A stretch of 64,000 bases of DNA from Naegleria gruberi. Lineage: Eukaryota. A program made the position numbers and the translations under genes. The stretch lies in NCBI GenBank assembly GCA_000004985.1, contig GG738879.1; one strand, written 5' to 3'. The first letter of the stretch is position 1; every line of letters begins with the position of its first letter. The notes beneath the pieces were generated by a model. It saw only the letters and a list, made by a program, of their open reading frames with translations. It was not told where the DNA came from and did not search any database. Shown piece by piece: positions 2,897 through 57,274 of the stretch.

Positions 2897-3296
2897 ACCA
2901 AACCCAAACCCAAACCCAAACCCAAACCCAAACCCAAACCCAAACCCAAACCCAAACCCAAACCCAAACCCAAACCCAAACCCGAACCCAAACCCAAACC
3001 CAAACCCAAACCCAAACCCAAACCCAAACCCAAACCCAAACCCAAACCCAAACCCAAACCCAAACCCAAACCCAAACCCAAACCCAAACCCAAACCCAAA
3101 CCCAAACCCAAACCCAAACCCAAACCCAAACCCAAACCCAAACCCAAACCCAAACCCAAACCCAAACCCAAACCCAAACCCAAACCCAAACCCAAACCCA
3201 AACCCAAACCCAAACCCAAACCCAAACCCAAACCCAAACCCAAACCCAAACCCAAACCCAAACCCAAACCCAAACCCAAACCCAAACCCAAACCCA
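2897..3296. repeat. Second (internal) telomeric (CCCAAA)n tract in the same orientation as the terminal one
   Basis: About 66 hexamer units, one CCCGAA variant, immediately after the N gap. It is followed by 64 bp of unique sequence and then the same subtelomeric block as at 421. Confidence 0.9.
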
Positions 3297-6897: not shown

Positions 6898-6978
6898 GCG
6901 GTCTTGACCGAGTGGTTAAGGTGATTGACTAGAAATCAATTGGGGTGACCCGCACAGGTTCGAATCCTGTAGACCGCG
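6898..6978 (+). tRNA. tRNA-Ser (anticodon AGA), class II with long variable arm
   Basis: Acceptor GCGGTCT/AGACCGC pairs perfectly. Anticodon stem ATTGA/TCAAT with loop CTAGAAA. Variable arm TGGGGTGACCCGCA. T arm CAGGTTCGAATCCTG. Discriminator G. Confidence 0.85.
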
Positions 6979-7177
6979 AAATTTTTGATATTATAAATAC
7001 TTTGCTTTGATATATTGAAATCACAACAACTTCATATGAGGCTTTGGACCAACTCCAATATTAGAATCCTAAACGAAATATAATGTAAGAGCAGCTAGAA
7101 ATGAAGAACATCCTTCTTTAGCTCAAAATGTGTCGTCTACTGAAAAAGAAAGAATATTAAATAGTTTTTTTTGAATT

Positions 7178-21759: not shown

Positions 21760-22224
21760 TTTTTTTAATTGAGTTTTTACTTGAAGAGTTTCAGGTTCGA
21801 ATGTTTACTAGAACTGCAAAGATTTGAGAACTAAAAAGAAATATTACTATTTAGAGTCAAGTATTAATTAATTATCGATCAATTTTGAACGAATATTCCA
21901 ACTTTTGGATTTAAGAATTGATTATTGTAAAATGTTCTAAAACGTGACCTAATGTTGATTATGGATGGAATTGGTTTGAGTCTAAGGAAAAGTTTTTTTA
22001 TTTAATTAAGGAACTTAACAACAGTCAATAAGAAGTAGTTTCTAATAAAAGTGTGCTTTAAAATTCACATTTTATGACAAAAAGATTAAATAAATGCAGG
22101 GTTGACCAGTTTATTGTAAAGAAAACTAAACGTGATTTTCAATTTCACGTTTAGTTTCGCGCTTTAAACATTTTAACCGTACAAAACTAATCTCCAACTA
22201 AATATCAAAAAAAACTAAACAAAC

Positions 22225-22758
22225 ATGTCCACAAGCAAATCTATTCGTATTTGGCAATCCAATTTCAATTCTCTCGAAACTGAAGAACATACCACAATCT
22301 TTCAAATTAATCCTTCCATGACAGTTGACCAATTTAAAACTGACTATTTCAATGGTGTTTCTGATGTTGTAATTTTCAATAATTCAACACAATTGAAAGA
22401 CACTGATCTGATTGCCAAACATCAAAATTTAGAAATTGCTCCCAAAAGCACATGTTTCAAACTCTTAATTGACAGATTTGGTCAATCAGAAACTTCATTC
22501 TTCTTGTATCGTTCCTATTCTGGCATTAAGAAAAGCCACATATGCCAAATAATTGATTCGTATAATATGCAAATTGATGGACAATACTATTCATTAGATG
22601 ATGTACTCGCTTTCACCTATGAAGAAGAAAATGGAAAATTGTTTCATATTTTCAATCAAGATGAAAATTGGAAGGTTGTGAAAAGGGAATTGGCAGAATT
22701 GACCAATGAATATATTGAAATTAAAACACTGTTGGGAATGGAAAATACACAGCATTGA
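22225..22758 (+). CDS. Hypothetical protein (177 aa)
   Basis: ATG at 22225, clean ORF. An overlapping +1-frame ORF at 22755..22958 could indicate a frameshift or a C-terminal extension. Confidence 0.4.
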   Translation: MSTSKSIRIWQSNFNSLETEEHTTIFQINPSMTVDQFKTDYFNGVSDVVIFNNSTQLKDTDLIAKHQNLEIAPKSTCFKLLIDRFGQSETSFFLYRSYSGIKKSHICQIIDSYNMQIDGQYYSLDDVLAFTYEEENGKLFHIFNQDENWKVVKRELAELTNEYIEIKTLLGMENTQH

Positions 22759-25842: not shown

Positions 25843-27736
25843 TTATTCATTATAAAAATTCCAAACCGAAATTGATGCATCCACAGAACATGTAATTATT
25901 TGTCTTTCATCTGGTGACCAAGAACATCTTGAAACACCAGCAGTACAGGAACCTGTACCAATAACTCTCTTTCTATTCATGTCCCAAATCTTAATCAACC
26001 CATCACTGCCACATGATGCTAAATATTTACCGCTCGAACTCATACTGACACAGCTTAATTGATTGTTTGGATCGTCAAACATCATGACTTGATCTGGGAA
26101 ATCAATATCCCAGAAACGAATCTTTCCGTCCAAACCACAAGTAATCACTTCAAGTTCATTATCAAATCGTTGAGATATTCCTGAAAAACCTGGGCACGAT
26201 CTATCAGCAATAGAGTGGAAGATCTTCTTCTTATTCTTTTGGAGGTCATATGTATAGACAAACTTATCCAAACTTGTAGTGTGTAACAGTGTTGATTGAC
26301 CAACATCAATCTTGACACCAGTAACTGCCTTAGTGTGATCTGCAAATTGCCCAAAGTTTTCTTGATTTCTCATTGACCAAATTCTAACAATACCATCTTG
26401 TCCACCACTAACCAGAATCTTTCCGTCCGTATCCAAACTAGTAACACCTCCTTTGTGAGTATTTACAATTTGCCATTCTTGTTGATTTGTTTTAATGTTG
26501 AAACATCTGATAAATCCATCAGACCAACCTGTGACAATCTTGTCTCCATTGAACAGAATACAGTTTGGTTTTGAACTTTGCGTATTGATAACGAAATTAT
26601 TGAGAGAAAAGTAATTTTCCAAATCCCACACCTTTACAGAACCATCAGAAGAGCAAGAGCAGAATAATTCATTTCTATCGTTGGAGAAGGCAACATCTGT
26701 TACTTCCTTAATGTGACTTTCCTCCAACAATTCACTTTGGAGATTGTCAGCATTAATCTTGAAAATCTTACCGGCATCAGTACCAGCAACCATCACTCTG
26801 TCATTAGAATGTAAAGTGAGAGAGGTAATCTTGCCGTTCAGTCTTGTTTCCTTCATTAATTTCCAAGTTGTATCTTGTCCTTTCAAAACTTTGAGTGAAC
26901 CATCACTGCATCCACAATAGAGAATATCCTTCTCGTTACACAACGACATGACACTAGATCCCACTGGGATGACATTTCTATAAATTGCATTCTTAATATT
27001 GAAAATCATTATTTCTCCTGATTTAGTACCAGCATAACAAAATTCGCCACTTTCATCAATACAGGCTTCCAGATATTCTCTTTGAGAACCAGCGGTTCTT
27101 CCAGGAAGTTGGCATGGTTTGAGTGAGAGAGTGAATTGCATTGATTTTGTATCGTATTGCCAAGAACAAACTTGAATGGAATTGTCTGTGGCAACAACGA
27201 AACAATAGACTGGTCTTCTTGGATTGAAATCTGGAGTCAATCCCGAATAAGCTACAAAGAATGCAGGTCTATCCAATTTGGTTCCTCCCGATAATCCACC
27301 AGTTTGAGTATCCCACACAGAGACCTTACCAGAACCATCTTGATGTGTTATTTTGGAATTAAAACATTTTAAACCTACCTGATACAGTAAGGAATTTGTC
27401 ATCGTGAGAGAAGGACAAGGACATTACTCGGTTAATGTGATTTTCAATCTTGAAAAGAATCTTCTTCTTTGCAATTTCCCAAACAATTACTGTAGCAATT
27501 TGTCCCTTACGTTTTGTGGTTCCGATTTGAGCAGTAGCCAACAATTTACCACTTGGAGCCATCGCAACGCATGTAATTTCCTCATCATGTTCAGTAAGGA
27601 ATTGTTGATTGTGAGCATCGGTCATATCTCCAACTACTAGAACACCACCAATCGGATACAAGATATATTTACTATTCTTTGGGTGTATCGATATTGTATG
27701 TCCATATTTGCCAGTATATCCAATAACATGCTCCAA
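25843..27736 (-). CDS. CFAP52: CFAP52/WDR16 (cilia- and flagella-associated WD-repeat protein), 2 exons; 5' start unresolved
   Basis: Exon 1 is 27379..27736 (..HVIGYTGKYGH..PSGKLLATAQ..FLTVS). A 40-nt intron spans 27339..27378 (GTAGGT...CATCAAG). Exon 2 is 25843..27338 (DGSGKVSVWD...). The protein is colinear with human CFAP52 (DAVIGFNGHVPTGLKCHPDQEHMIYPLGC.., LVSLGGPDDGSVVVWS..) with WD repeats throughout. There is no in-frame ATG upstream of EHVIGY. Confidence 0.85.
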
Positions 27737-27791
27737 TTCAATACAATTCTCTGTGGTTGTTGATTCATTTTTTTATTTTATGATGTTGAGA

Positions 27792-27803
27792 TTTGGCGCC
27801 AAA
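27792..27803. promoter_or_regulatory. Perfect 12-bp palindrome TTTGGCGCCAAA (E2F-like TTTSGCGC core) 56 bp upstream of CFAP52
   Basis: A GC-rich palindrome in AT-rich intergenic DNA between the divergent CFAP52 gene and the 28030 gene. The same 12-mer recurs at 37472. Confidence 0.45.
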
Positions 27804-27844
27804 GTGAGTTACGATTTTTTGGCAGCTTAAAACCTCAATCTAAT

Positions 27845-27853
27845 TTTGGCGCC
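27845..27853. promoter_or_regulatory. Second TTTGGCGCC half-site in the same intergenic region
   Basis: ttttggcgccttt, 53 bp from the first site. Confidence 0.35.
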
Positions 27854-28029
27854 TTTATTTAAACAAAAAAAATAGAAGAACGAGTCAGAGTGCCATCATC
27901 ATCATTTGTAAATTATAGTTAACCATCATCGTATCATTTCGGAGTTTGATATTATTTGATATTCTAAAAAATAGCAACAACACCTTCGTCAAAAGTATTG
28001 GTAATTTATTAATTTATTAAAAAACAAGA

Positions 28030-28505
28030 ATGAGCACTAGTAATGATTATCGTTCCAATGTATCACCTCAAGATTATGGAATTGGAGGATCAGATTCTGA
28101 TAATCAAGTCCATGAAATGCCAAAACCTTCCAAGTTTGCTCCCGAAATTGCCATACAGACAGAAACACATCCAGTGGAATCATACATTGATCCTAAATAT
28201 CAATTCTCTCAGTGGCAGTTGAGAAAGAATGTTGTGAGAGCAGCCGATTTGAGAGATAAGAAGGACTCTAAAACGCAAACCATTCAATCACACTTTAGAA
28301 GAGAAAATGAAACACAAGTTTATCCTAAAAAGTAAGTTCACAATATCACCTAGCATTTGATAACTATTATTATAGAGAAAAAGATACACAGACAAGAAAA
28401 GACAGTGGTACAAATCCAGTTAAACACACTAGATACATCAAAGGGTTAAGAGGAAATAAGGAAGCTAAAATGTCAGTTGTAGAGCTGAAGTTTGACCAAA
28501 ATTAA
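28030..28505 (+). CDS. Hypothetical small protein, probably 2 exons
   Basis: Exon 1 is 28030..28331 (ends ..YPKK). A 44-nt GTAAGT...TTATAG intron spans 28332..28375. Exon 2 is 28376..28505 (EKDTQTRKDSGTNPVKHTRYIKGLRGNKEAKMSVVELKFDQN, stop at 28503-28505). The splice is inferred from consensus sites and frame continuity only. Confidence 0.4.
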
Positions 28506-30064: not shown

Positions 30065-30135
30065 TCGGGTGTGGTATAGTGGTAGCATTCCAGACTGTCA
30101 CTCTGGCGACCCGGGTTCAATTCCCGGCACTCGAG
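30065..30135 (+). tRNA. tRNA-Asp (anticodon GTC)
   Basis: Acceptor TCGGGTG/CACTCGA (one G-U pair). D arm GTATAGTGGTAGCAT. Anticodon stem CCAGA/TCTGG with loop CTGTCAC. T arm CCGGGTTCAATTCCCGG. Discriminator G. Confidence 0.85.
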
Positions 30136-35547: not shown

Positions 35548-37257
35548 TTATTTTTGTTGCTTCTTCTTTGCCAATACTTTTGAAACTGAATCAACAAATT
35601 GTTGTCCAAGAACTTTGGTATCCACTGCACAGGTATATTCAACATGAATACTTCTATCAGAATTGTGATTCTTCTCAAGGAATTTGTTCTTTATGAATTC
35701 CTTGGCACTATCATAATCATTACCTCCTGTATATTCTGGTTGATATTTGGAAAGATCTTTAAGAGTTTCAATCTTTTCTCTAAACACATCAGTCTTATTC
35801 AAAAAGAGAATAATATCAGTATCTATATTGATTGAATGAATTTGATGAATTTGATGATTAAATAAATTGAATAGAGATTAGAGGACTAGACAGTAAATAG
35901 TAAACAAACCTTTGAACCAACGGTTATTACAAACATCTTCAAACAAGTACAAGCTTTCGTTTAAACGTTGTGTCGATTCATCTTCATAACACAATTGATT
36001 ATATTCTGATAAACTGCTCACATATAATAAAGCATCAACACCTTCAAAACCTGTCAATTTGTCAAATCACACATTATATTGATTGAATAAATTTGTTAAC
36101 ATTCTAAACTTACAGTGAATCCACTTTTTACGTTCATTTCTCTGACCACCAACATCAATAACCTTTACAGTTTTTTGAATTTCATTCAATTGGAATTCCA
36201 TCTCTGCAATACCAGTTGTCTTCAATCGGGATCTCAAAATATCATCAACAGTTGGAACGTACGATTGTGGATCTTTAATTCTATCCAATGCATTGAAATA
36301 ATAAGCAGCAGAATCAGTAATTTGAATCAAATTTCTTCTCTTGTATGCTTCCTGAATTGCTGGCTCATTCCACAATGATTGAATATCGACAGCAAGAGTT
36401 TCATTCCAATGTTTTTCAATATTGAGAAGAGCATCATCATCCATTCGATTCATCAAATCGGTGGCAATTTTCTGACTGGCCTCCTTCTCAATATTAATAT
36501 TGAATTGTTGAGTGGCTTCTATCAGTGCCTTGATATTCCTCACAATGTTACCATAGATAATTTCTTTAAAGGTGGCACGTTCTTCATCGGTGAATGGTTC
36601 CTTGTGTATAATTCTCATTTGCTTGAAAATTGTACCTATATATTATATTAATATTGATGATAATTATATATATTTAAAAAAGAAGATCATCGTGATGTAG
36701 TATTTTGTTATTATTATTGTTGTTAATTATATGATGATGATATTATTATTAATATAACATGATGATGAAGAGATGAAGATGATGATGATTTGAAGATAGT
36801 CATCATAAACCGTTTGTTATTGTTGTTGTTGTTATTTTGTTATCCCAATCAAAATATCCACACAGCAGCGCACAAGGAAGGTTGAAAACACACAATGAAC
36901 GTTAAATATATCACAGAGTTTCATCATCATTGCAATTGATACCGTCGACAACAAGACAGATAACGATGATGATCGGTGATGAAGATGATGTAGAGGATAA
37001 TTATTTTTCCAAACGTGGTGTGCAAATATCATATCATCACGAATAAATTTAAATAAAAATAATAAAATAATTATCGGGTGATGATTGGAAATTGTTGTTG
37101 TGGTTCGAAAACTTCATATATAGTTTAGCTACATACTTTTACCTGATTCACCGGCACCAATTAACAAGACACTGAGTTTGTTTGGGTCTTTTTTAGACGC
37201 TGGTGCTTGATTGGCTGGTGGTTTAGGTTTACTTTCTTCAGCTCCAAAACATGGCAT
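35548..37257 (-). CDS. Heterotrimeric G-protein alpha subunit, 4 exons, 352 aa
   Basis: Exons are 37137..37257 (MPCFGAEE..KLSVLLIGAGESGK), 36114..36635 (S-TIFKQMRIIHKEPFTDEE...DVGGQRNERKKWIH), 35910..36050 (CFEGVDALLYVSSLSEY..NNRWFK) and 35548..35822 (DTDIILFLNKTDVFREK...TCAVDTK..). Introns are 36636..37136 (501 nt, GTATGT..TATATAG), 36051..36113 (63 nt, GTAAGT..GACAG) and 35823..35909 (87 nt, GTTTGT..ATATAG). Every junction restores a canonical G-alpha motif (GAGESGKST, KKWIHCFEGV, WFxDTxIILFLNK). Confidence 0.9.
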
Positions 37258-37471
37258 TTTCTTCTCACTTTAATTTACTTTCGAATAATAAAAATGTTGA
37301 TGTTTTCAAAACAATTCACAGCAATGTTGTTGATGTTTCTCTCTAGTTGTTTAAAAAAAACAAAAAATCGTCGATTGATGTGAGGGCTGTAACGTTTTTT
37401 TTCTAATGACATTTGACCGGTTGAGGGGAGAATGGTATTTCCCTTCACCACCACAAACAATAAGAAAAACA

Positions 37472-37483
37472 TTTGGCGCCAAA
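37472..37483. promoter_or_regulatory. TTTGGCGCCAAA palindrome about 215 bp upstream of the G-alpha start codon
   Basis: Identical 12-mer to 27792-27803. Confidence 0.4.
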
Positions 37484-38158
37484 CAAGAAATGGATTACAC
37501 AATTGGAGACTTTTTCCAAGTCACCTGTAAAGAGAAAATTCATGAAGAAATTGGTGTGTGAACTGAAGGCAACCAAGTCATGACTTGAAATGTAAATTGT
37601 GTCAAGATCTTTGTGTTGTGTTGAAGAGAGACTTGATTGCATAATGGTTTCTAATAAAGTTCGATAATAGACGAAAGTTGTCGTTTGAGAAATTGTAAAA
37701 GTGACACTTTTTTAGTGCTTCAGTTCACTAACTACTGCATCAATTCTAAACTACAGTTTTTTCCTCATATTCTCATTCCCAAAACTTCAAACCTCAATGT
37801 AACCATCTGACATATTCAAACCATTCACGATTCTCGATTATCACATATGAAAGAGAGGACAGTTCGCACCAATTCATGTGAGCACTATCTCTTAATTTGC
37901 GACTCTAACATACACCTTAAAATTCATATCCAACAGTTCATCAGCAACAACAATATCAGTACGACATCAAGGTGAAAATTTGTGCGTGCGCATCTTTTGG
38001 CTCTAATTGCGATAATGAATCAATTTATTAACTGTATTGTTTGGAGCCGATGATGAAGGATTGAAAAACAATTAGAAAAAAATTGAAACAACAAGAATCA
38101 TTAACTTGCAGAATTACATCAAATTTAATATTTAATAATTTTAAATAATTTCGGAAAA

Positions 38159-39712
38159 ATGTTATCAAATGCATCATCTTCATCATGGAAAGAAATTCTA
38201 TTGAACGGTCATAAGAATAATCAAATCAGCTCATCTCCAGAATTACTCGAAGCACTGAAATGCATGTTGCGAGAATTATACAAAATTCTTCCATTACTTC
38301 ATCAGAAAAAGGGATTTTTCAGTAAGAATATTCAATCGGCAATTAGTGGACAAATTCTGAGTGAGTGCATAGGGAAAGTGATGGGGTCGAGTGGTGAATT
38401 GATTGATTATATTGGAAAGTTGATGATTAAAGAGAAAATGATTGAATTGGATGGAGATTCGGATAGTTTACTTTCAGAAAAGAAGAATGTTAAATTCTTG
38501 CATCCTTATTTACCTAGATTAGTCATTGTTGGAGGTGGACATGCTGGATTGACTAGTGCCATTCAATTACATGAATATTTCTCAATTGTTTTGATTGATA
38601 AGAATGATCACATTTCATTGAAACCTGGTTTTCCAATAATTTTTGATAATGTTGAGAATGCTAACAAGATTTCAGTGAAATATTCTGATTGTATGCCATC
38701 TAGTGTTTCATTTGTTCGTGGATTGACCAAGGTAGTGAGAGAAGACGGTGTATTTATTGAGCTAATTGACAAAGATTCTCAAACTAATCTCTTTAGTGTA
38801 AATACAGAACAAGCTAATGATGAGCTGAAGAATTGTAAATATTTAACATTTGATTATTTGGTCATTTCTACTGGTTGTAATTCATGGAGAAATCTTCCAA
38901 GCTACGATGGCAGAGGAGGTGACAATTCGATTTTCTATGCTGACAGCTATGACATGAACATGCTCAAAGTTGCAGTGAATACCATTTCCCAAAGTGATGA
39001 TTCCAAGGCAGTTGTCTTGATTGGTGGTGGAATTGTTGGTTCTGAATTTTTTGGAGCTCTAGCTCTTGGTTTTCCAAAGAAGAAAATTTACATGATTCAA
39101 AGATCTGAATTATTGATGAAACCTAATCAAGATGCTCACAATATTGCAATGGAAACTTTTGGTAAAATGAAGAATGGAACCATTCTGTTGAATAGTCAAG
39201 TGGATCGTCAATCAGATTCTGAAACTCTGGTTGTAAAATCATTGGAAAGTGGAGAAGAAACATCAATCAAATGCAGTGTTTGCATTTTGGCTTCTGGAAC
39301 TGCTCCAAACTCAACCCTGATGAAAGATTACTTTGCATCTAGCTTGGATGAATATGGATATATCAAAGTTAATTCTTCCTTCCAACTTTTCAAATCAAAT
39401 TCAGAATTTTATAGAAATATCTTTGTTTTGGGAGATGTCAGTAATTTGGATTCTTTGAAATTAATGCAAAATGCAAATTTTCAAGCTGAGAAATTTATTG
39501 AGATTGCCAAGTTGATTCTTCAAAAACAGGAAAAGGATTTACCAACCTATCAATCCAACGATGCTAGAGTTATGGCCGTCTCACTTGGTCCTAAATATGG
39601 ATTTGTAATGAAGGAAGATAAGGTAATGTTCAAATCAGGAATTGTTATCAAATTGAAAGGTTTCATCCAATCCTCTACTGTTAAAGGTTACAGCAAACAA
39701 GCCAAAAAATAA
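38159..39712 (+). CDS. FAD/NAD(P)-binding pyridine nucleotide-disulfide oxidoreductase (AIF/FSP1/NDH-2-like)
   Basis: Two Rossmann dinucleotide motifs: LVIVGGGHAGLTSA and AVVLIGGGIVGSEF. 517 aa. ATG at 38159. Confidence 0.7.
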   Translation: MLSNASSSSWKEILLNGHKNNQISSSPELLEALKCMLRELYKILPLLHQKKGFFSKNIQSAISGQILSECIGKVMGSSGELIDYIGKLMIKEKMIELDGDSDSLLSEKKNVKFLHPYLPRLVIVGGGHAGLTSAIQLHEYFSIVLIDKNDHISLKPGFPIIFDNVENANKISVKYSDCMPSSVSFVRGLTKVVREDGVFIELIDKDSQTNLFSVNTEQANDELKNCKYLTFDYLVISTGCNSWRNLPSYDGRGGDNSIFYADSYDMNMLKVAVNTISQSDDSKAVVLIGGGIVGSEFFGALALGFPKKKIYMIQRSELLMKPNQDAHNIAMETFGKMKNGTILLNSQVDRQSDSETLVVKSLESGEETSIKCSVCILASGTAPNSTLMKDYFASSLDEYGYIKVNSSFQLFKSNSEFYRNIFVLGDVSNLDSLKLMQNANFQAEKFIEIAKLILQKQEKDLPTYQSNDARVMAVSLGPKYGFVMKEDKVMFKSGIVIKLKGFIQSSTVKGYSKQAKK

Positions 39713-39826: not shown

Positions 39827-40862
39827 ATGCTTTCTTTTTTACGCAAGGCTTTGACACACAACAATAACAAGAATAATAATAACAATAATAATAATAATAA
39901 TAATACTGATAATAATTATTTTCTTCCCACTGATAGTTTAATAATAATATTTCAATTTCTCAATCAACAAGATTTTATTAAAATTTCATCTGTTTGTAGA
40001 TATTGGAGATTTGTTGTTCAACAACCATTCCGAAAGGAATTTACCAATTATATATTTTACTCTTCTTATTCAATAATTTATGGTAGATGTATTATCAATG
40101 CATTTGAATTTTTTAATTTCTTTTCTTCCATAACATTAGATTTGCATAATACTGTACCTGAATCAACATTTAAAACTCTACTTTCTTCAATGAAATTACA
40201 AAGTTTATTTATAGATTCATGTGTTGTTAAAAATAATATACCATTCAATTCTGTGAAACAATCTAATATTACTGAATTAGGATTAAATTGTTTAATGAAA
40301 AAGAAAGATTTACGTGCTTTATTTACTGTACTTCCAAATTTGAAATATTTAAGTTTAGGAATGAATGTTACAGAATCTTTAATTAGTACAGAATCATTTC
40401 TGAGTACATATTGTCATAAATTAGAAACACTCCATTTACAATTATTACCTGAAAATCAAAAAAAAATTGCAAAATTATTAAATGGAATATTTAATCCATC
40501 AACAACAACAATATCCAATCTCATTGATATTAGAATATTTGTAACAGATAATAATCCAACAAGTAATAGAAAATTAAATAATTTTACATTTGATTTTAAT
40601 TCATTTCCATATTTAAAATATTTATTTCTTGATATTACCTATATTTATACATTGGAATCAATTAGTAATGTATTAAATTCAAATAATATTTCAAAATTAC
40701 AAGAATTTGGATTTGGAACTATTAGAAAATCTATTGAAAAATTACAATTTAATTCTAGTGAAAATTTTAAAAATTTAAAAAAATTATTTTTAAATAGAAC
40801 CGANATGATGACAAATATAGATAATCTTCCTTCATTAGAATTATTATATATAGATGAATATG
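39827..40862 (+). CDS. F-box / leucine-rich-repeat protein with poly-Asn tract; 3' end lost in a 50-N gap
   Basis: NKNNNNNNNNNNNT tract. F-box LPTDSLIIIFQFLNQQDFIKISSVCRYWRFVV. LRR-like L..L..L repeats. Single N at 40803 and gap at 40863-40912. Confidence 0.6.
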
Positions 40863-40912
40863 NNNNNNNNNNNNNNNNNNNNNNNNNNNNNNNNNNNNNN
40901 NNNNNNNNNNNN
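40863..40912. other. Assembly gap (50 N) inside a duplicated LRR gene
   Basis: n run. Confidence 0.99.
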
Positions 40913-41066
40913 ATTGGTTGGTAAAATACTGTGTGTAAAGATTTCTTGCAAGAATCACAGCGTCTTTCAAAATAGATACCTTGTTCCTTGTTATTTTGTA
41001 AAGACATTTTTTTTCGTCTAAAAACTGGCTTTCGACTGAAAATTCGAATCAAAAAAAACACAATAA

Positions 41067-42436: not shown

Positions 42437-43007
42437 AGGTTAATGAAAAAGAAAGATTTACGTGCTTTATTTACTGTACTTCCAAATTTGAAATATTTAA
42501 GTTTAGGAATGAATGTTACAGAATCTTTAATTAGTACAGAATCATTTCTGAGTACATATTGTCATAAATTAGAAACACTCCATTTACAATTATTACCTGA
42601 AAATCAAAAAAAAATTGCAAAATTATTAAATGGAATATTTAATCCATCAACAACAACAATATCCAATCTCATTGATATTAGAATATTTGTAACGGATAAT
42701 AATCCAACAAGTAATAGAAAATTAAATAATTTTACATTTGATTTTAATTCATTTCCATATTTAAAATATTTATTTCTTGATATTACCTATATTTATACAT
42801 TGGAATCAATTAGTAATGTATTAAATTCAAATAATATTTCAAAATTACAAGAATTTGGATTTGGAACTAATAGAAAATTTATTGAAAAATTACAATTTAA
42901 TTCTAGTGAAAATTTAAAAAATTTAAAAAAATTATTTTTAAATAGAACCGAAATGATGACAAATATAGATAATCTTCCTTCATTAGAATTATTATATATA
43001 GATGAAT
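42437..43007 (+). repeat. About 570-bp segmental duplicate of 40292-40862
   Basis: Aligned by eye with only a handful of substitutions. Copy 1 is interrupted by an N gap at exactly the point where copy 2 continues. Confidence 0.8.
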
Positions 43008-43738
43008 ATGAAAAAAAGTTTTATTCCACTGCAAACTATTCAAAACCATGGAATTTAGCATCTAATGTGAAAATGCCATCTCTAAAATATTTACATTTAA
43101 GTCTTATAAATGAAACTCATTTACCTGATAGATTAAATGTGGAATCATTTAAAAATATTAAATATTTTTATTTTGAATCTCAATATAATATTGATTTATC
43201 AGAATTGAGTAAATTAAATTTAGAAATATTAATTCTTAAAATTTCTTTAAAATATAACAAGAATATATTTCATCACATTTCTAAAATTTCAACCTTGAGA
43301 GATTTAACATTTCGTAAGCCTATTTGGGATATTGATTTGAAATTACTTTGTAAATTACCAAATTTAGAATATCTTAATATTAGATTGGAATTTAAAAGTG
43401 AAATATCTTTTACTTTTAATTCACTAACTACACTCTCAATTTATTCAGATAATTTGAAAGGATTAAACTTTTTTCAAATATCAAATTTACCAAAATTGAA
43501 AACTTTAATAATTCGTAATGATTTGGATAATAACCATACGTGGTGGTTGCAACCATTATTTCCAAATTTACAAATAATTAAAGCAAGTTATAACAGTTTT
43601 GGAATATTTTTAGCATCTCAATATAATGATGGTATGAATTTTGGTGAGTATGAGGTTTCACAAAGAACAGCAACTCATTTACAAAATGAATATGTATGGC
43701 TCTTTCCAAAAAAATTTATTTTTGGCAATGCTCAATAA
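42443..43738 (+). CDS. LRR protein, paralogue / second copy of the 39827 gene (C-terminal LRR portion complete)
   Basis: 42437-43007 is near-identical (few mismatches) to 40292-40862. It continues with further LRR-like repeats to a stop at 43738. The true 5' end is uncertain because the ATG at 42443 is internal in copy 1. Confidence 0.55.
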   Translation: MKKKDLRALFTVLPNLKYLSLGMNVTESLISTESFLSTYCHKLETLHLQLLPENQKKIAKLLNGIFNPSTTTISNLIDIRIFVTDNNPTSNRKLNNFTFDFNSFPYLKYLFLDITYIYTLESISNVLNSNNISKLQEFGFGTNRKFIEKLQFNSSENLKNLKKLFLNRTEMMTNIDNLPSLELLYIDEYEKKFYSTANYSKPWNLASNVKMPSLKYLHLSLINETHLPDRLNVESFKNIKYFYFESQYNIDLSELSKLNLEILILKISLKYNKNIFHHISKISTLRDLTFRKPIWDIDLKLLCKLPNLEYLNIRLEFKSEISFTFNSLTTLSIYSDNLKGLNFFQISNLPKLKTLIIRNDLDNNHTWWLQPLFPNLQIIKASYNSFGIFLASQYNDGMNFGEYEVSQRTATHLQNEYVWLFPKKFIFGNAQ

Positions 43739-47797: not shown

Positions 47798-49992
47798 ATG
47801 GAACGAAATGCTCCCACCCACTTGACCAAAATAAATGATCTTGATGAACGTACTTTGAGAAAATTGTTGGTTAAAGCCACAAAGATTAAATCCAATCCAT
47901 CAATCTATTCTCACAGAATGGAAGATAAGGTTTGTCATCTTTCTTAATCAAAATTTTAACCAATAATCCACAGTCACTGTTAATGTTATTTGAAAAACCG
48001 TCACTTCGTACACGTCTTTCATTCGAAACAGCAATGACATCATTTGGTGGAAATGCCATCTATTATAGTGCCGATGAAGGACCGTTCGGAAAGAAGGAAA
48101 ATGTAAAGGATACTGCCATGTGTGCAGCTCAATATGTTGATGCATTTGTGTTGAGATTAAAGTCTAGAGAAAGTTTGTTGGAATTTGTAAAATATTCAAA
48201 AGTTCCTGTTATAAATGCCTTAGATGATTGGGCTCATCCTTGTCAAATATTGGCTGACCTGTTTACCATTGCAGAATTGAAATTAAATCCAAAACCACTC
48301 CACGAAAATCATCTCAACTTTGATAGACTGAAAATGGCTTACTATGGTGATTGTAGAAATAATGTCACTTATGATTTGATGAGAGCTGCTGCCATGATGA
48401 ATTTCAAACTCGTTCTCTCTTGCCCTGATAATGATGACTATAAACCAGTCCAAGAAGTTTGGGATGAAATCAAGAGAATCAATGAGAAGAGTGTAGAATG
48501 GATTGAAAATCCACTTGAAGCTTCTAAGGGATGTGATGTCATCTATACAGATTCATGGATGTCCTACCACATTCCTGAAAGTATGCTTCAAACCAGAGAA
48601 CAAGCATTGAAAAACTATCAAGTTAACATGCCAATATTGAAAAATGCAAAGAGTGATGTTATTTTCATGCATTGCCTTCCTGCAAAACGTTCTGAAGAAG
48701 TTACAGATGAAGTGATGGACTCTGTACATTCAGTTATCTATCATCAAGCATGGAATAGACAATGGGCTCAACAAGCACTCCTCCTCTATGTCATCTATGG
48801 ACCCAGTATCTTTTCAGAACACGAATATGAATCCGAGCTCTTATCAGAGGAAAAGTACTTTGCTATGGCTCCAAAACATCTTGGAACGATGCACTCCATT
48901 AGTAAGAAGAAGCACGAGTCTGTAAATAAGGGTGAAAAGAAATATCTGAAACATGGAAACAAGGAGAGAATACTTATAAGCTTTGGAGGAAATGCTCTTC
49001 AAAGTGATTCCACAAAGGAGGTAACCTATGAAGATTTACATTCCAACATTGATAAGAATTGTTCTGCACTTGCCAAATTTCTCCAAAATTGCAAGCAATC
49101 CAACATTTGCATTACACATGGAAATGGTCCTCAAGTTGGTTTCATTCACAAGGAATTGAATCATGAATCCCAAATGCCACTCGATGTTTGCGGAGCCATG
49201 TCTCAATCATTCATTGGTTATCAATTCCAACAATCCCTGATGAATAATATGCACCAACAAGACACGAAAGGAAATGTCCATGTTCGTTCTGTTACCACAC
49301 TCATCACACAAACTCTGGTGGATCAAAATGACAAGGCTTTCCAACATCCTAACAAGCCTGTTGGTAAATTCCTCTCTCCTGAAGAGTATGAATCATCAAA
49401 GAAGGACAAACAAATGATGACTTTCCACAAGTTTGATGAAGGCTACAGAAGAGTTGTTCCTTCTCCAACACCTATTGATATCATTGAATTGGACACTATC
49501 AAAACACTCTTCAATGAAGGACACTTGGTTATTTGTAATGGAGGTGGAGGTATCCCTGTTGTTAAAAGCCGAGATGAAGTTGGTGGTGATGAGAAAGCAA
49601 TGATTGGTAAAAAGCAAGCACAAAGAAAGAACCACCTGATGGGCATAGAAGCAGTCATTGACAAGGATAGATCCAGTTCCCTGCTAGCACAAAAGCTTAC
49701 TGTCGATTACTTTATCATTCTCACCAAAGTGGATCATGTCTACTTGAATTACTCTTCAAAAAAGGAGGAGAAGAAGCCTATTACTTCAATGGATGTTGAA
49801 ACTGCTCGACAATACATTACGGAAGGATGCTTTGAAGAAGGTACCATGCTACCAAAGATTGAATCAGCCACTGAATTTGTTACCAAGACTGGAAAACCTG
49901 CTCTCATCACAAGCTTGGACAATTTCATCAGAGAAACTTCCAACAATGAAATCAAACTACGTCATATTGAAGGTACTTGGATTGTTCCATAA
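47798..49992 (+). CDS. Bifunctional ornithine carbamoyltransferase - carbamate kinase fusion protein, 2 exons, about 716 aa
   Basis: Exon 1 is 47798..47929 (MERNAPTHLTKINDLDERTLRKLLVKATKIKSNPSIYSHRMEDK). A 44-nt intron spans 47930..47973 (GTTTGT..CCACAG). Exon 2 is 47974..49992. OTC motifs: SLRTR, HPCQ, DSWMS, HCLP. About 50-aa linker. Carbamate-kinase motifs: ILISFGGNAL, HGNGPQVG, GGGGIPV, VIDKDRSSSLLA. One uninterrupted reading frame. Confidence 0.85.
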
Positions 49993-53386: not shown

Positions 53387-53457
53387 TGCGTCGACCGGGA
53401 ATTGAACCCGGGTCACGGCGATGGCAACGCCGTATTCTACCACTAAACCATCGACGC
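53387..53457 (-). tRNA. tRNA-Gly (anticodon GCC)
   Basis: Reverse complement GCGTCGATGGTTTAGTGGTAGAATACGGCGTTGCCATCGCCGTGACCCGGGTTCAATTCCCGGTCGACGCA. Acceptor GCGTCGA/TCGACGC pairs perfectly. Anticodon loop TTGCCAT. Confidence 0.9.
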
Positions 53458-57200: not shown

Positions 57201-57274
57201 GCCTTCCTAGCTCAGTTGGCAGTAGCGCTGTCCTAGTAAGACAGAGGTCTTGGGTTCGATTCCCAAGGGAGGCA
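57201..57274 (+). tRNA. tRNA-Thr (anticodon AGT)
   Basis: Acceptor GCCTTCC/GGGAGGC (one G-U pair). Anticodon stem CTGTC/GACAG with loop CTAGTAA. T arm CTTGGGTTCGATTCCCAAG. Discriminator A. Confidence 0.8.

Follow-up and report, generated by a model that had tools for sequence, protein, structure and literature searches.

In vertebrate multiciliated cells, E2F4/5 acting with MCIDAS drives the genes for centrioles and cilia (PMC12183034), and in Stentor an E2F is needed for regeneration of the oral apparatus, which is blocked by RNAi (PMC9371601). Naegleria builds its basal bodies de novo (PMC4819266), and its basal-body and flagellar genes are transcribed only during a differentiation that takes one hour (PMC4819266; PMC12183034). 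A review published in 2025 states that it is not known which transcription factors control the cilia genes of Naegleria, given that this organism lacks FOXJ1, RFX and XAP5 alike (PMC12183034). The present analysis concerns a stretch of 64 000 nucleotides from Naegleria gruberi (the window, in what follows), which includes two E2F-type sites in the short spacer between divergent genes for flagellar proteins.

E2F-type sites between two divergent flagellar genes

The locus is made up of the following features:

25843-27768, minus strand: CFAP52-family gene (axonemal WD40 protein), with the ATG at 27766-27768.
27769-28029, unstranded: bidirectional promoter spacer of 261 bp, 28 % GC (72 % AT), between the two divergent flagellar genes.
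27792-27803, unstranded: perfect 12 bp palindrome TTTGGCGCCAAA, formed by two inverted E2F-type half-sites TTTGGCGC.
27845-27853, plus strand: second E2F-type site TTTGGCGCC, reading AAAGGCGCCAAAA on the minus strand.
28030-28505, plus strand: CFAP206-like gene encoding 143 aa, with exon 1 at 28030-28331, a GT..AG intron at 28332-28375 and exon 2 at 28376-28505.

The WD40 gene on the left shares 78 % identity with FDP41_009847 of N. fowleri and includes an intron or a frame break near 27359-27402. Among PDB entries it is most like CFAP52/FAP52 and the related FAP196, seen in cryo-EM maps of the axoneme, and the N. fowleri orthologue aligns end to end with those structures, bearing out the assignment to CFAP52 made in the initial annotation. 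Between the ATG at 27766-27768 and the conserved LELEHVIG frame (27740-27768) there is a frame offset of 1 base. In an environmental contig from an ENA metagenome that is 96 % identical to the window (L023), one extra base is present at this point and the ATG is in frame (MNQQQQENCIELEHV). Hence, 27766-27768 is the CFAP52 start codon and the window has a 1 nt indel just after it, which stems either from the assembly or from a difference between strains.

The product of the right-hand gene matches the C-terminus of CFAP206 in PDB axoneme structures (E=6e-12) and also the full-length FAP206 of Willaertia, and its orthologues in N. lovaniensis and N. fowleri are named as CFAP-associated. In the three Naegleria (window 28030-28505; N. 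fowleri L001 9029-9799; N. lovaniensis L004 10001-10764) the gene facing CFAP52 corresponds to the last ~100 residues of CFAP206, and in this short form a low-complexity N-terminus lies ahead of the C-terminal part. No FAP206-domain sequence was found in the window, and the full FAP206-domain protein is present in Willaertia (L005 9899-11911) and in the contigs L002, L003 and L018. Because the right-hand gene is spliced and CFAP206-related, the spacer is a true bidirectional promoter, as had been supposed in the initial annotation.

Both motifs were found where the initial annotation had placed them, 53 bp apart, and the palindrome lies upstream of both genes, at 24 bp from the CFAP52 ATG and 227 bp from the CFAP206-like ATG; for the second site the distances are 77 bp and 177 bp, respectively. 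The figure of 56 bp originally given for the distance from the palindrome to the flagellar gene is wrong, as it was measured to the TTG, at 27736, of a mechanical ORF rather than to the ATG. In L023 the site at 27845 is identical, and the palindrome, which there reads TTTGGCGCCAAT, has kept its core, the change being confined to the outermost base.

The occurrence of these motifs is not random. In dinucleotide-preserving shuffles of the 64 kb, TTTGGCGCC is expected 0.10 times, and the window includes five strand-hits at three places, a number that was reached in none of 100 shuffles. When up to one mismatch is allowed, the 12-mer gives four hits (0.09 expected in dinucleotide-preserving shuffles), and the E2F core TTTSSCGC was found six times (1.26 expected in shuffles). 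The hexanucleotide GGCGCC is present at just three places in the 64 kb, in every case as TTTGGCGCC and in none of them within an ORF. The palindrome does not fit the X-box-type palindrome CGTTGCCATGGCAACG (RFX4 consensus), and an RNA hairpin was ruled out, since a perfect 12 nt palindrome leaves no room for a loop and the orthologous sites are non-palindromic.

Two further sites lie elsewhere in the window:

37472-37483, unstranded: second perfect copy of TTTGGCGCCAAA, 215 bp upstream of a G-alpha gene (ATG 37257, minus strand).
22155-22162, plus strand: TTTCGCGC site, 70 bp upstream of a 177 aa ORF (22225-22758).

Both adjoin genes without a known ciliary role, namely those for the G-alpha protein, the 177 aa ORF and a UvrD-like helicase. 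The helicase gene is divergent and lies 396 bp from TTTCGCGC, which is upstream of it, and it is the sole candidate for a neighbour of the cell-cycle or DNA-replication kind. A PDB search with the 177 aa ORF gave nothing useful. The ATG that comes 7 bp after the palindrome at 37472, at position 37490, starts no more than a short ORF, and neither the small-ORF listing nor the codon-usage profile of 37257-38159 revealed a convincing gene. The ~900 bp between the G-alpha gene and an oxidoreductase gene are without a convincing ORF, yet bear a perfect palindrome, and this region may hold an unrecognized gene, small or spliced, or else a transcript that is non-coding.

Rfam found only four tRNAs in the window (6898-6978, 30065-30135, 53387-53457 and 57201-57274), all of them intergenic, and a hit of the relaxed motif at 6974, CCGCGAAA, was discarded because it is inside the first of these. 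Further features of the window were noted in passing. Arrays of the 6 bp unit CCCAAA at 1-419 and 2898-3296 (~70 and ~67 copies, with 99 % matches) lie on either side of an N gap (1037-2896), and the beginning of the window is probably a chromosome end that bears a telomere repeat of the TTTGGG type. The ORFs at 39827-40924 and 42443-43738 have in common a peptide beginning MKKKDLRALFTVLPNLKYLSLGMNVTESL and are separated by a 50-N gap (40863-40912); either an LRR/F-box-like gene was duplicated locally or the repetition is an artefact of scaffolding. A single ORF at 47983-49992 includes ornithine/aspartate carbamoyltransferase domains together with an amino-acid (carbamate) kinase domain, i.e. 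it is a fused two-enzyme gene.

The site at CFAP52 and at further ciliary promoters in other taxa

CFAP206, or its short form, was found head to head with CFAP52 in seven heterolobosean-like taxa, comprising the window, N. fowleri (L001), N. lovaniensis (L004), Willaertia magna (L005), two more distant contigs with 46 % CFAP52 identity (L002 and L003) and a metagenome contig with 39 % (L018). The spacers range in length from 27 to 261 bp and cannot be aligned with one another, except those of N. fowleri and N. lovaniensis, which are closely related. Nevertheless, the site is conserved across the taxa: five of the seven spacers include a strict TTTSSCGS site, two in the case of the window, and the spacer of a sixth taxon includes the near-variant TTCTGGCGCCAGAA. 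The chance of a strict TTTSSCGS site is 0.1-1 % per shuffled spacer. In the taxa other than the window, the spacers carry the following:

N. fowleri (L001): strict site TTTCCCGC.
Willaertia (L005), spacer of 60 bp: strict site TTTCCCGCC.
L003, spacer of 53 bp: strict site TTTTGGCGCTAA.
L018, spacer of 27 bp: strict site TTTTTTTGGCGCCAAAAAAA, which takes up nearly the whole gap between the start codons.
L002: TTCTGGCGCCAGAA, lacking the TTT flank and including the only GGCGCC in the 13.9 kb of this contig.
N. lovaniensis (L004): a degenerate version only, TTCTGGGCGGTA.

The cores of the CFAP52-spacer sites across taxa are GGCGCC, CCCGC(T/C) and GGCGCT. A scan of metagenomes with CFAP52 yielded 11 contigs, among which L018 is the closest relative and the only one to combine the palindrome with a CFAP206 neighbour. 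The other ten, from more distant protists, have no CFAP206 neighbour, and there is no site in the five of them that include upstream sequence.

In N. fowleri, N. lovaniensis and Willaertia, CFAP206 is adjoined by a kinase gene, the best named homologues of which, at ~70 % identity, are listed as 'serine/threonine-protein kinase MAK', 'CMGC/RCK/MAK' and 'ICK-like'; the classification is taken from these named homologues, and no MAK/ICK chain was among the best PDB matches of the kinase. The MAK/ICK family is one of cilium-length kinases and includes LF4 and CILK1. An E2F-type site lies 40-104 bp upstream of the MAK ATG in all three of these Naegleria/Willaertia species, namely TTTGGCGGCAA in N. 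fowleri, TTTGGCGCC in N. lovaniensis and TTTCCCGCC in Willaertia, so that the orthologous cores are GGCGGC, GGCGCC and GGCGGG, respectively. The sequences upstream of MAK in Acrasis kona (L006) and in the contigs L007 and L019-L022 (three protists) have no site. The region upstream of MAK in Acrasis kona that is without an E2F-like site measures 580 bp (L006 9421-10000), and Acrasis is not known to have a flagellate stage. A PDB search with the LRR gene beside MAK gave nothing useful. Downstream of CFAP52 lies a gene with a FOP_dimer/LisH domain, and TTTTGGCGGGA is located upstream of it in both of the species in which this was recorded, by 58 bp in N. fowleri and by 37 bp in N. lovaniensis. 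The FOP family includes the centriolar proteins FOP, FOR20 and OFD1.

The MAK promoters also resemble the sequence around the second site of the window:

27813-27863, unstranded: module of ~50 nt around the second site, with ~80 % identity to the N. lovaniensis MAK promoter (L004 13167-13213).

The two include a run of 19 identical bases, ATTTTGGCGCCTTTATTTA, and in a multiple alignment the module also aligns with the N. fowleri MAK promoter (L001 ~7000-7060). The MAK-kinase gene is missing from this locus and is not present elsewhere in the window. The likeness of the sequences suggests either a rearrangement that fused pieces of promoters or a common module longer than the site itself.

A CTACAAA(A) box was observed 3-15 nt after the E2F-like site, on the side of the gene, in the promoters of MAK, of FOP and of CFAP52 in Willaertia (L001 7053 and 12125; L004 5184 and 13173; L005 9850). 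In the window, GTACAAAA at 22180-22187 comes after the site at 22155. This box may be an initiator-like core element, and the word CTACAAA shows no overall enrichment.

In the sampled loci the sites are promoter-restricted and lie beside ciliary genes. Nine of the 12 strict sites in annotated loci fall within the 14 % of the sequence that is intergenic (p=3e-6); a genome-wide lack of positional enrichment in promoters had been named in the initial annotation as a refuting outcome, and in these loci the enrichment in promoters is strong. The site is present in 8/11 upstream regions of ciliary genes and in 0/13 others (Fisher p=2e-4), counts that are drawn from three annotated genomes (N. fowleri, N. 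lovaniensis and Willaertia) and include orthologues, which are non-independent, such that three promoter families, all from one syntenic gene neighbourhood, are what counts as independent and the sample is small. As there is no site upstream of MAK in Acrasis and three other protists, nor upstream of CFAP52 in the five metagenome contigs from more distant protists that include upstream sequence, the link to ciliary genes is lineage-restricted.

Candidate binding proteins and regulatory role

The palindrome TTTGGCGCCAAA is identical to the human E2F1 HT-SELEX consensus (PMC5449588), in keeping with its initial description as a recognition sequence of the E2F/DP type, and all of the strict variants fit TTT[GC][GC]CG[GC]. 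The specificity of E2F is conserved between human, plant and oomycete proteins (PMC11267843). Whether E2F and DP are encoded in the genome had been raised as a check, and N. gruberi does encode both of them, together with DEL and RB (PMC4862756 supplement). The N. gruberi E2F's DNA-binding domain matches that of human E2F4 (1CF7) with E=7e-25 and has an identical recognition helix (RRxYD), and its dimerization region is closest to those of E2F4/E2F5. From these sequence comparisons, an E2F-family protein is favoured as the predicted binder.

Two readings would deny the sites this identity. It is extremely improbable that they are functionless, either as GC-rich words that arose by chance or as parts of a dispersed repeat; the small size of the motif speaks for this reading, and nothing else does, whereas the observed counts far exceed those in the shuffles and the sites are kept at the same gene pair in six of seven taxa. 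Furthermore, local alignment of the sequences within 120 bp on either side of the two perfect copies revealed ATTTGGCGCCAAA as the only shared sequence, just one base beyond the 12-mer. Hence, the motif is not a dispersed repeat, and an origin from such a repeat or from a mobile element, the other outcome that the initial annotation had considered damaging, was rejected as the flanks of the perfect copies are unrelated. Alternatively, a different lineage-specific protein, other than E2F, DP or DEL, could bind an element centred on GGCGCC, with the likeness to E2F sites being convergent. The TTCTGGCGCCAGAA of L002, which is without the TTT flank, the palindromic GGCGCC core found in six sites and the recurrent CTACAAA box 3-15 nt downstream, which hints at a composite element, are all consistent with such a binder. 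However, in orthologous and paralogous promoters the site drifts to the non-palindromic TTTCCCGCC, TTTGGCGGGA and TTTGGCGGCAA, exactly the degeneracy of E2F, and the genus has kept the recognition helix of E2F, so we regard a binder of another kind as very unlikely. Drift of the core across orthologues, among GGCGCC, GGCGGC, GGCGGG and CCCGCC, likewise argues for E2F degeneracy and not for a binder specific to the palindrome.

We propose, with moderate confidence, that sites for an E2F-family protein co-regulate the bidirectional ciliary promoter and form part of a wider ciliary cis-code in Heterolobosea. The protein that would bind here is either an E2F/DP heterodimer or a two-domain winged-helix protein of the DEL/E2F7-8 type, and the palindrome and its neighbour would together constitute a common, orientation-independent cis-element leading to co-expression of CFAP52 and the CFAP206-related gene. 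Since a symmetric site between divergent start codons could serve both genes at once, this would explain the persistence of the gene pair and the survival of the site in a spacer of 27 bp. Sites of the same type mark at least two further cilium-related promoters in Naegleria and Willaertia, those of the MAK/ICK-family kinase and the FOP/LisH gene. The element would most likely belong to a cis-code that turns on the set of flagellar and basal-body genes at the change from amoeba to flagellate, and the predicted consequences are activation during differentiation and a regulon that extends over the genome. Activation is favoured over repression by the parallels with Stentor and with multiciliated cells. 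Though the initial annotation treated an E2F site and a lineage-specific element driving flagellar genes as alternatives, the two appear to be the same thing, as E2F-type sites are kept at ciliary promoters.

The same proteins could act at these sites in other ways. The sites may be silencers through which a DEL/E2F7-8-type protein or E2F-RB holds the flagellar genes off in proliferating amoebae, with the repression being lifted at differentiation. DEL and RB are both encoded by N. gruberi, the palindrome suits a two-domain atypical E2F, and the E2F of Naegleria most resembles E2F4/5, a class that is usually repressive. Flagellar genes are also silent in amoebae (PMC4819266). Against this, the predicted targets of the Stentor E2F are all induced (PMC9371601) and E2F4/5 are activators in multiciliated cells (PMC12183034), and, though the sequence itself does not separate activation from repression, we consider silencing unlikely. 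The sites could also be ordinary cell-cycle elements of the G1/S type, the ciliary neighbours being incidental to the gene neighbourhood. In animals and plants E2F has this as its canonical role (PMC4862756), which would accommodate both the TTTCGCGC located in an upstream region common to the UvrD-like helicase gene and the second palindrome near non-ciliary genes. However, division of Naegleria amoebae involves neither centrioles nor flagella, and these genes are transcribed only at differentiation, so that the target genes fit poorly with a role confined to the cell cycle. Moreover, the sites are kept at three cilium-related promoters across taxa, compared to 0/13 other promoters in the same loci, and a cell-cycle role appears quite unlikely. 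Co-regulation of the ciliary genes by an E2F-family protein at differentiation is the reading that we prefer.

Comparison with described E2F and ciliary systems

The element is a site of a known kind, and it is the conserved use of this site on axonemal and cilium-related genes in Heterolobosea that appears to be unreported. We found no report of a link between E2F and the flagellum in the Naegleria papers that we searched on E2F, promoter motifs and transcription factors, and there is no mention of E2F or of these genes in the Naegleria RNA-seq paper. The locus offers a hypothesis that is cheap to test, with a 12 bp site, three candidate proteins (E2F, DP and DEL) and conserved target promoters. 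If the proposal is correct, one symmetric site would be able to co-regulate a conserved divergent pair of axonemal genes, and the classic model for de novo assembly of centrioles would be joined to the E2F-driven programme of animal multiciliated cells. Much more tentatively, the programme by which Naegleria and other Heterolobosea form basal bodies and flagella de novo might have an E2F-family factor as its master regulator, acting directly on structural genes of the axoneme through sites located at their start sites or beside them. Were this so, the heterolobosean case, taken with multiciliated cells and Stentor, would make the coupling of E2F to ciliogenesis ancestral in eukaryotes and not a vertebrate invention.

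In sequence, the closest described elements are the G1/S E2F/DP sites of animals and plants (TTTSSCGC, with TTTGGCGCCAAA as the palindromic optimum), which the sites described here match while also being promoter-proximal and having their cognate factors in the genus. They differ in that the neighbours here are axonemal or cilium-related rather than replication or cell-cycle genes, and in being located in very short bidirectional spacers (27-261 bp), with the gap in L018 almost filled by the site. The RFX X-box of animals and choanoflagellates is an analogous palindromic element near the starts of ciliary genes that is described as defining a regulon (PMC10530576; PMC12183034). However, its sequence (CGTTGCCATGGCAACG, RFX4 consensus) and its factor family are different, and RFX is absent from Naegleria.

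The Stentor E2F provides a precedent from a protist, as it is induced early and its predicted targets peak with the centriole genes (PMC9371601). In contrast to the sites examined here, those predicted targets belong to no single functional family and include cyclins, and a conserved bidirectional ciliary promoter has not been described for them. In the E2F4/5-DP1-MCIDAS/GEMC1 programme, an E2F-family factor is tied to the making of basal bodies and cilia in large numbers, a process that takes place outside the cell cycle. The resemblance to Naegleria extends to the E2F itself, which is most similar to E2F4/5, and to the de novo origin of the basal bodies. The direct targets in vertebrates are mostly genes for centriole biogenesis together with FOXJ1 and RFX, whereas here the sites lie directly on genes for structural proteins of the axoneme.
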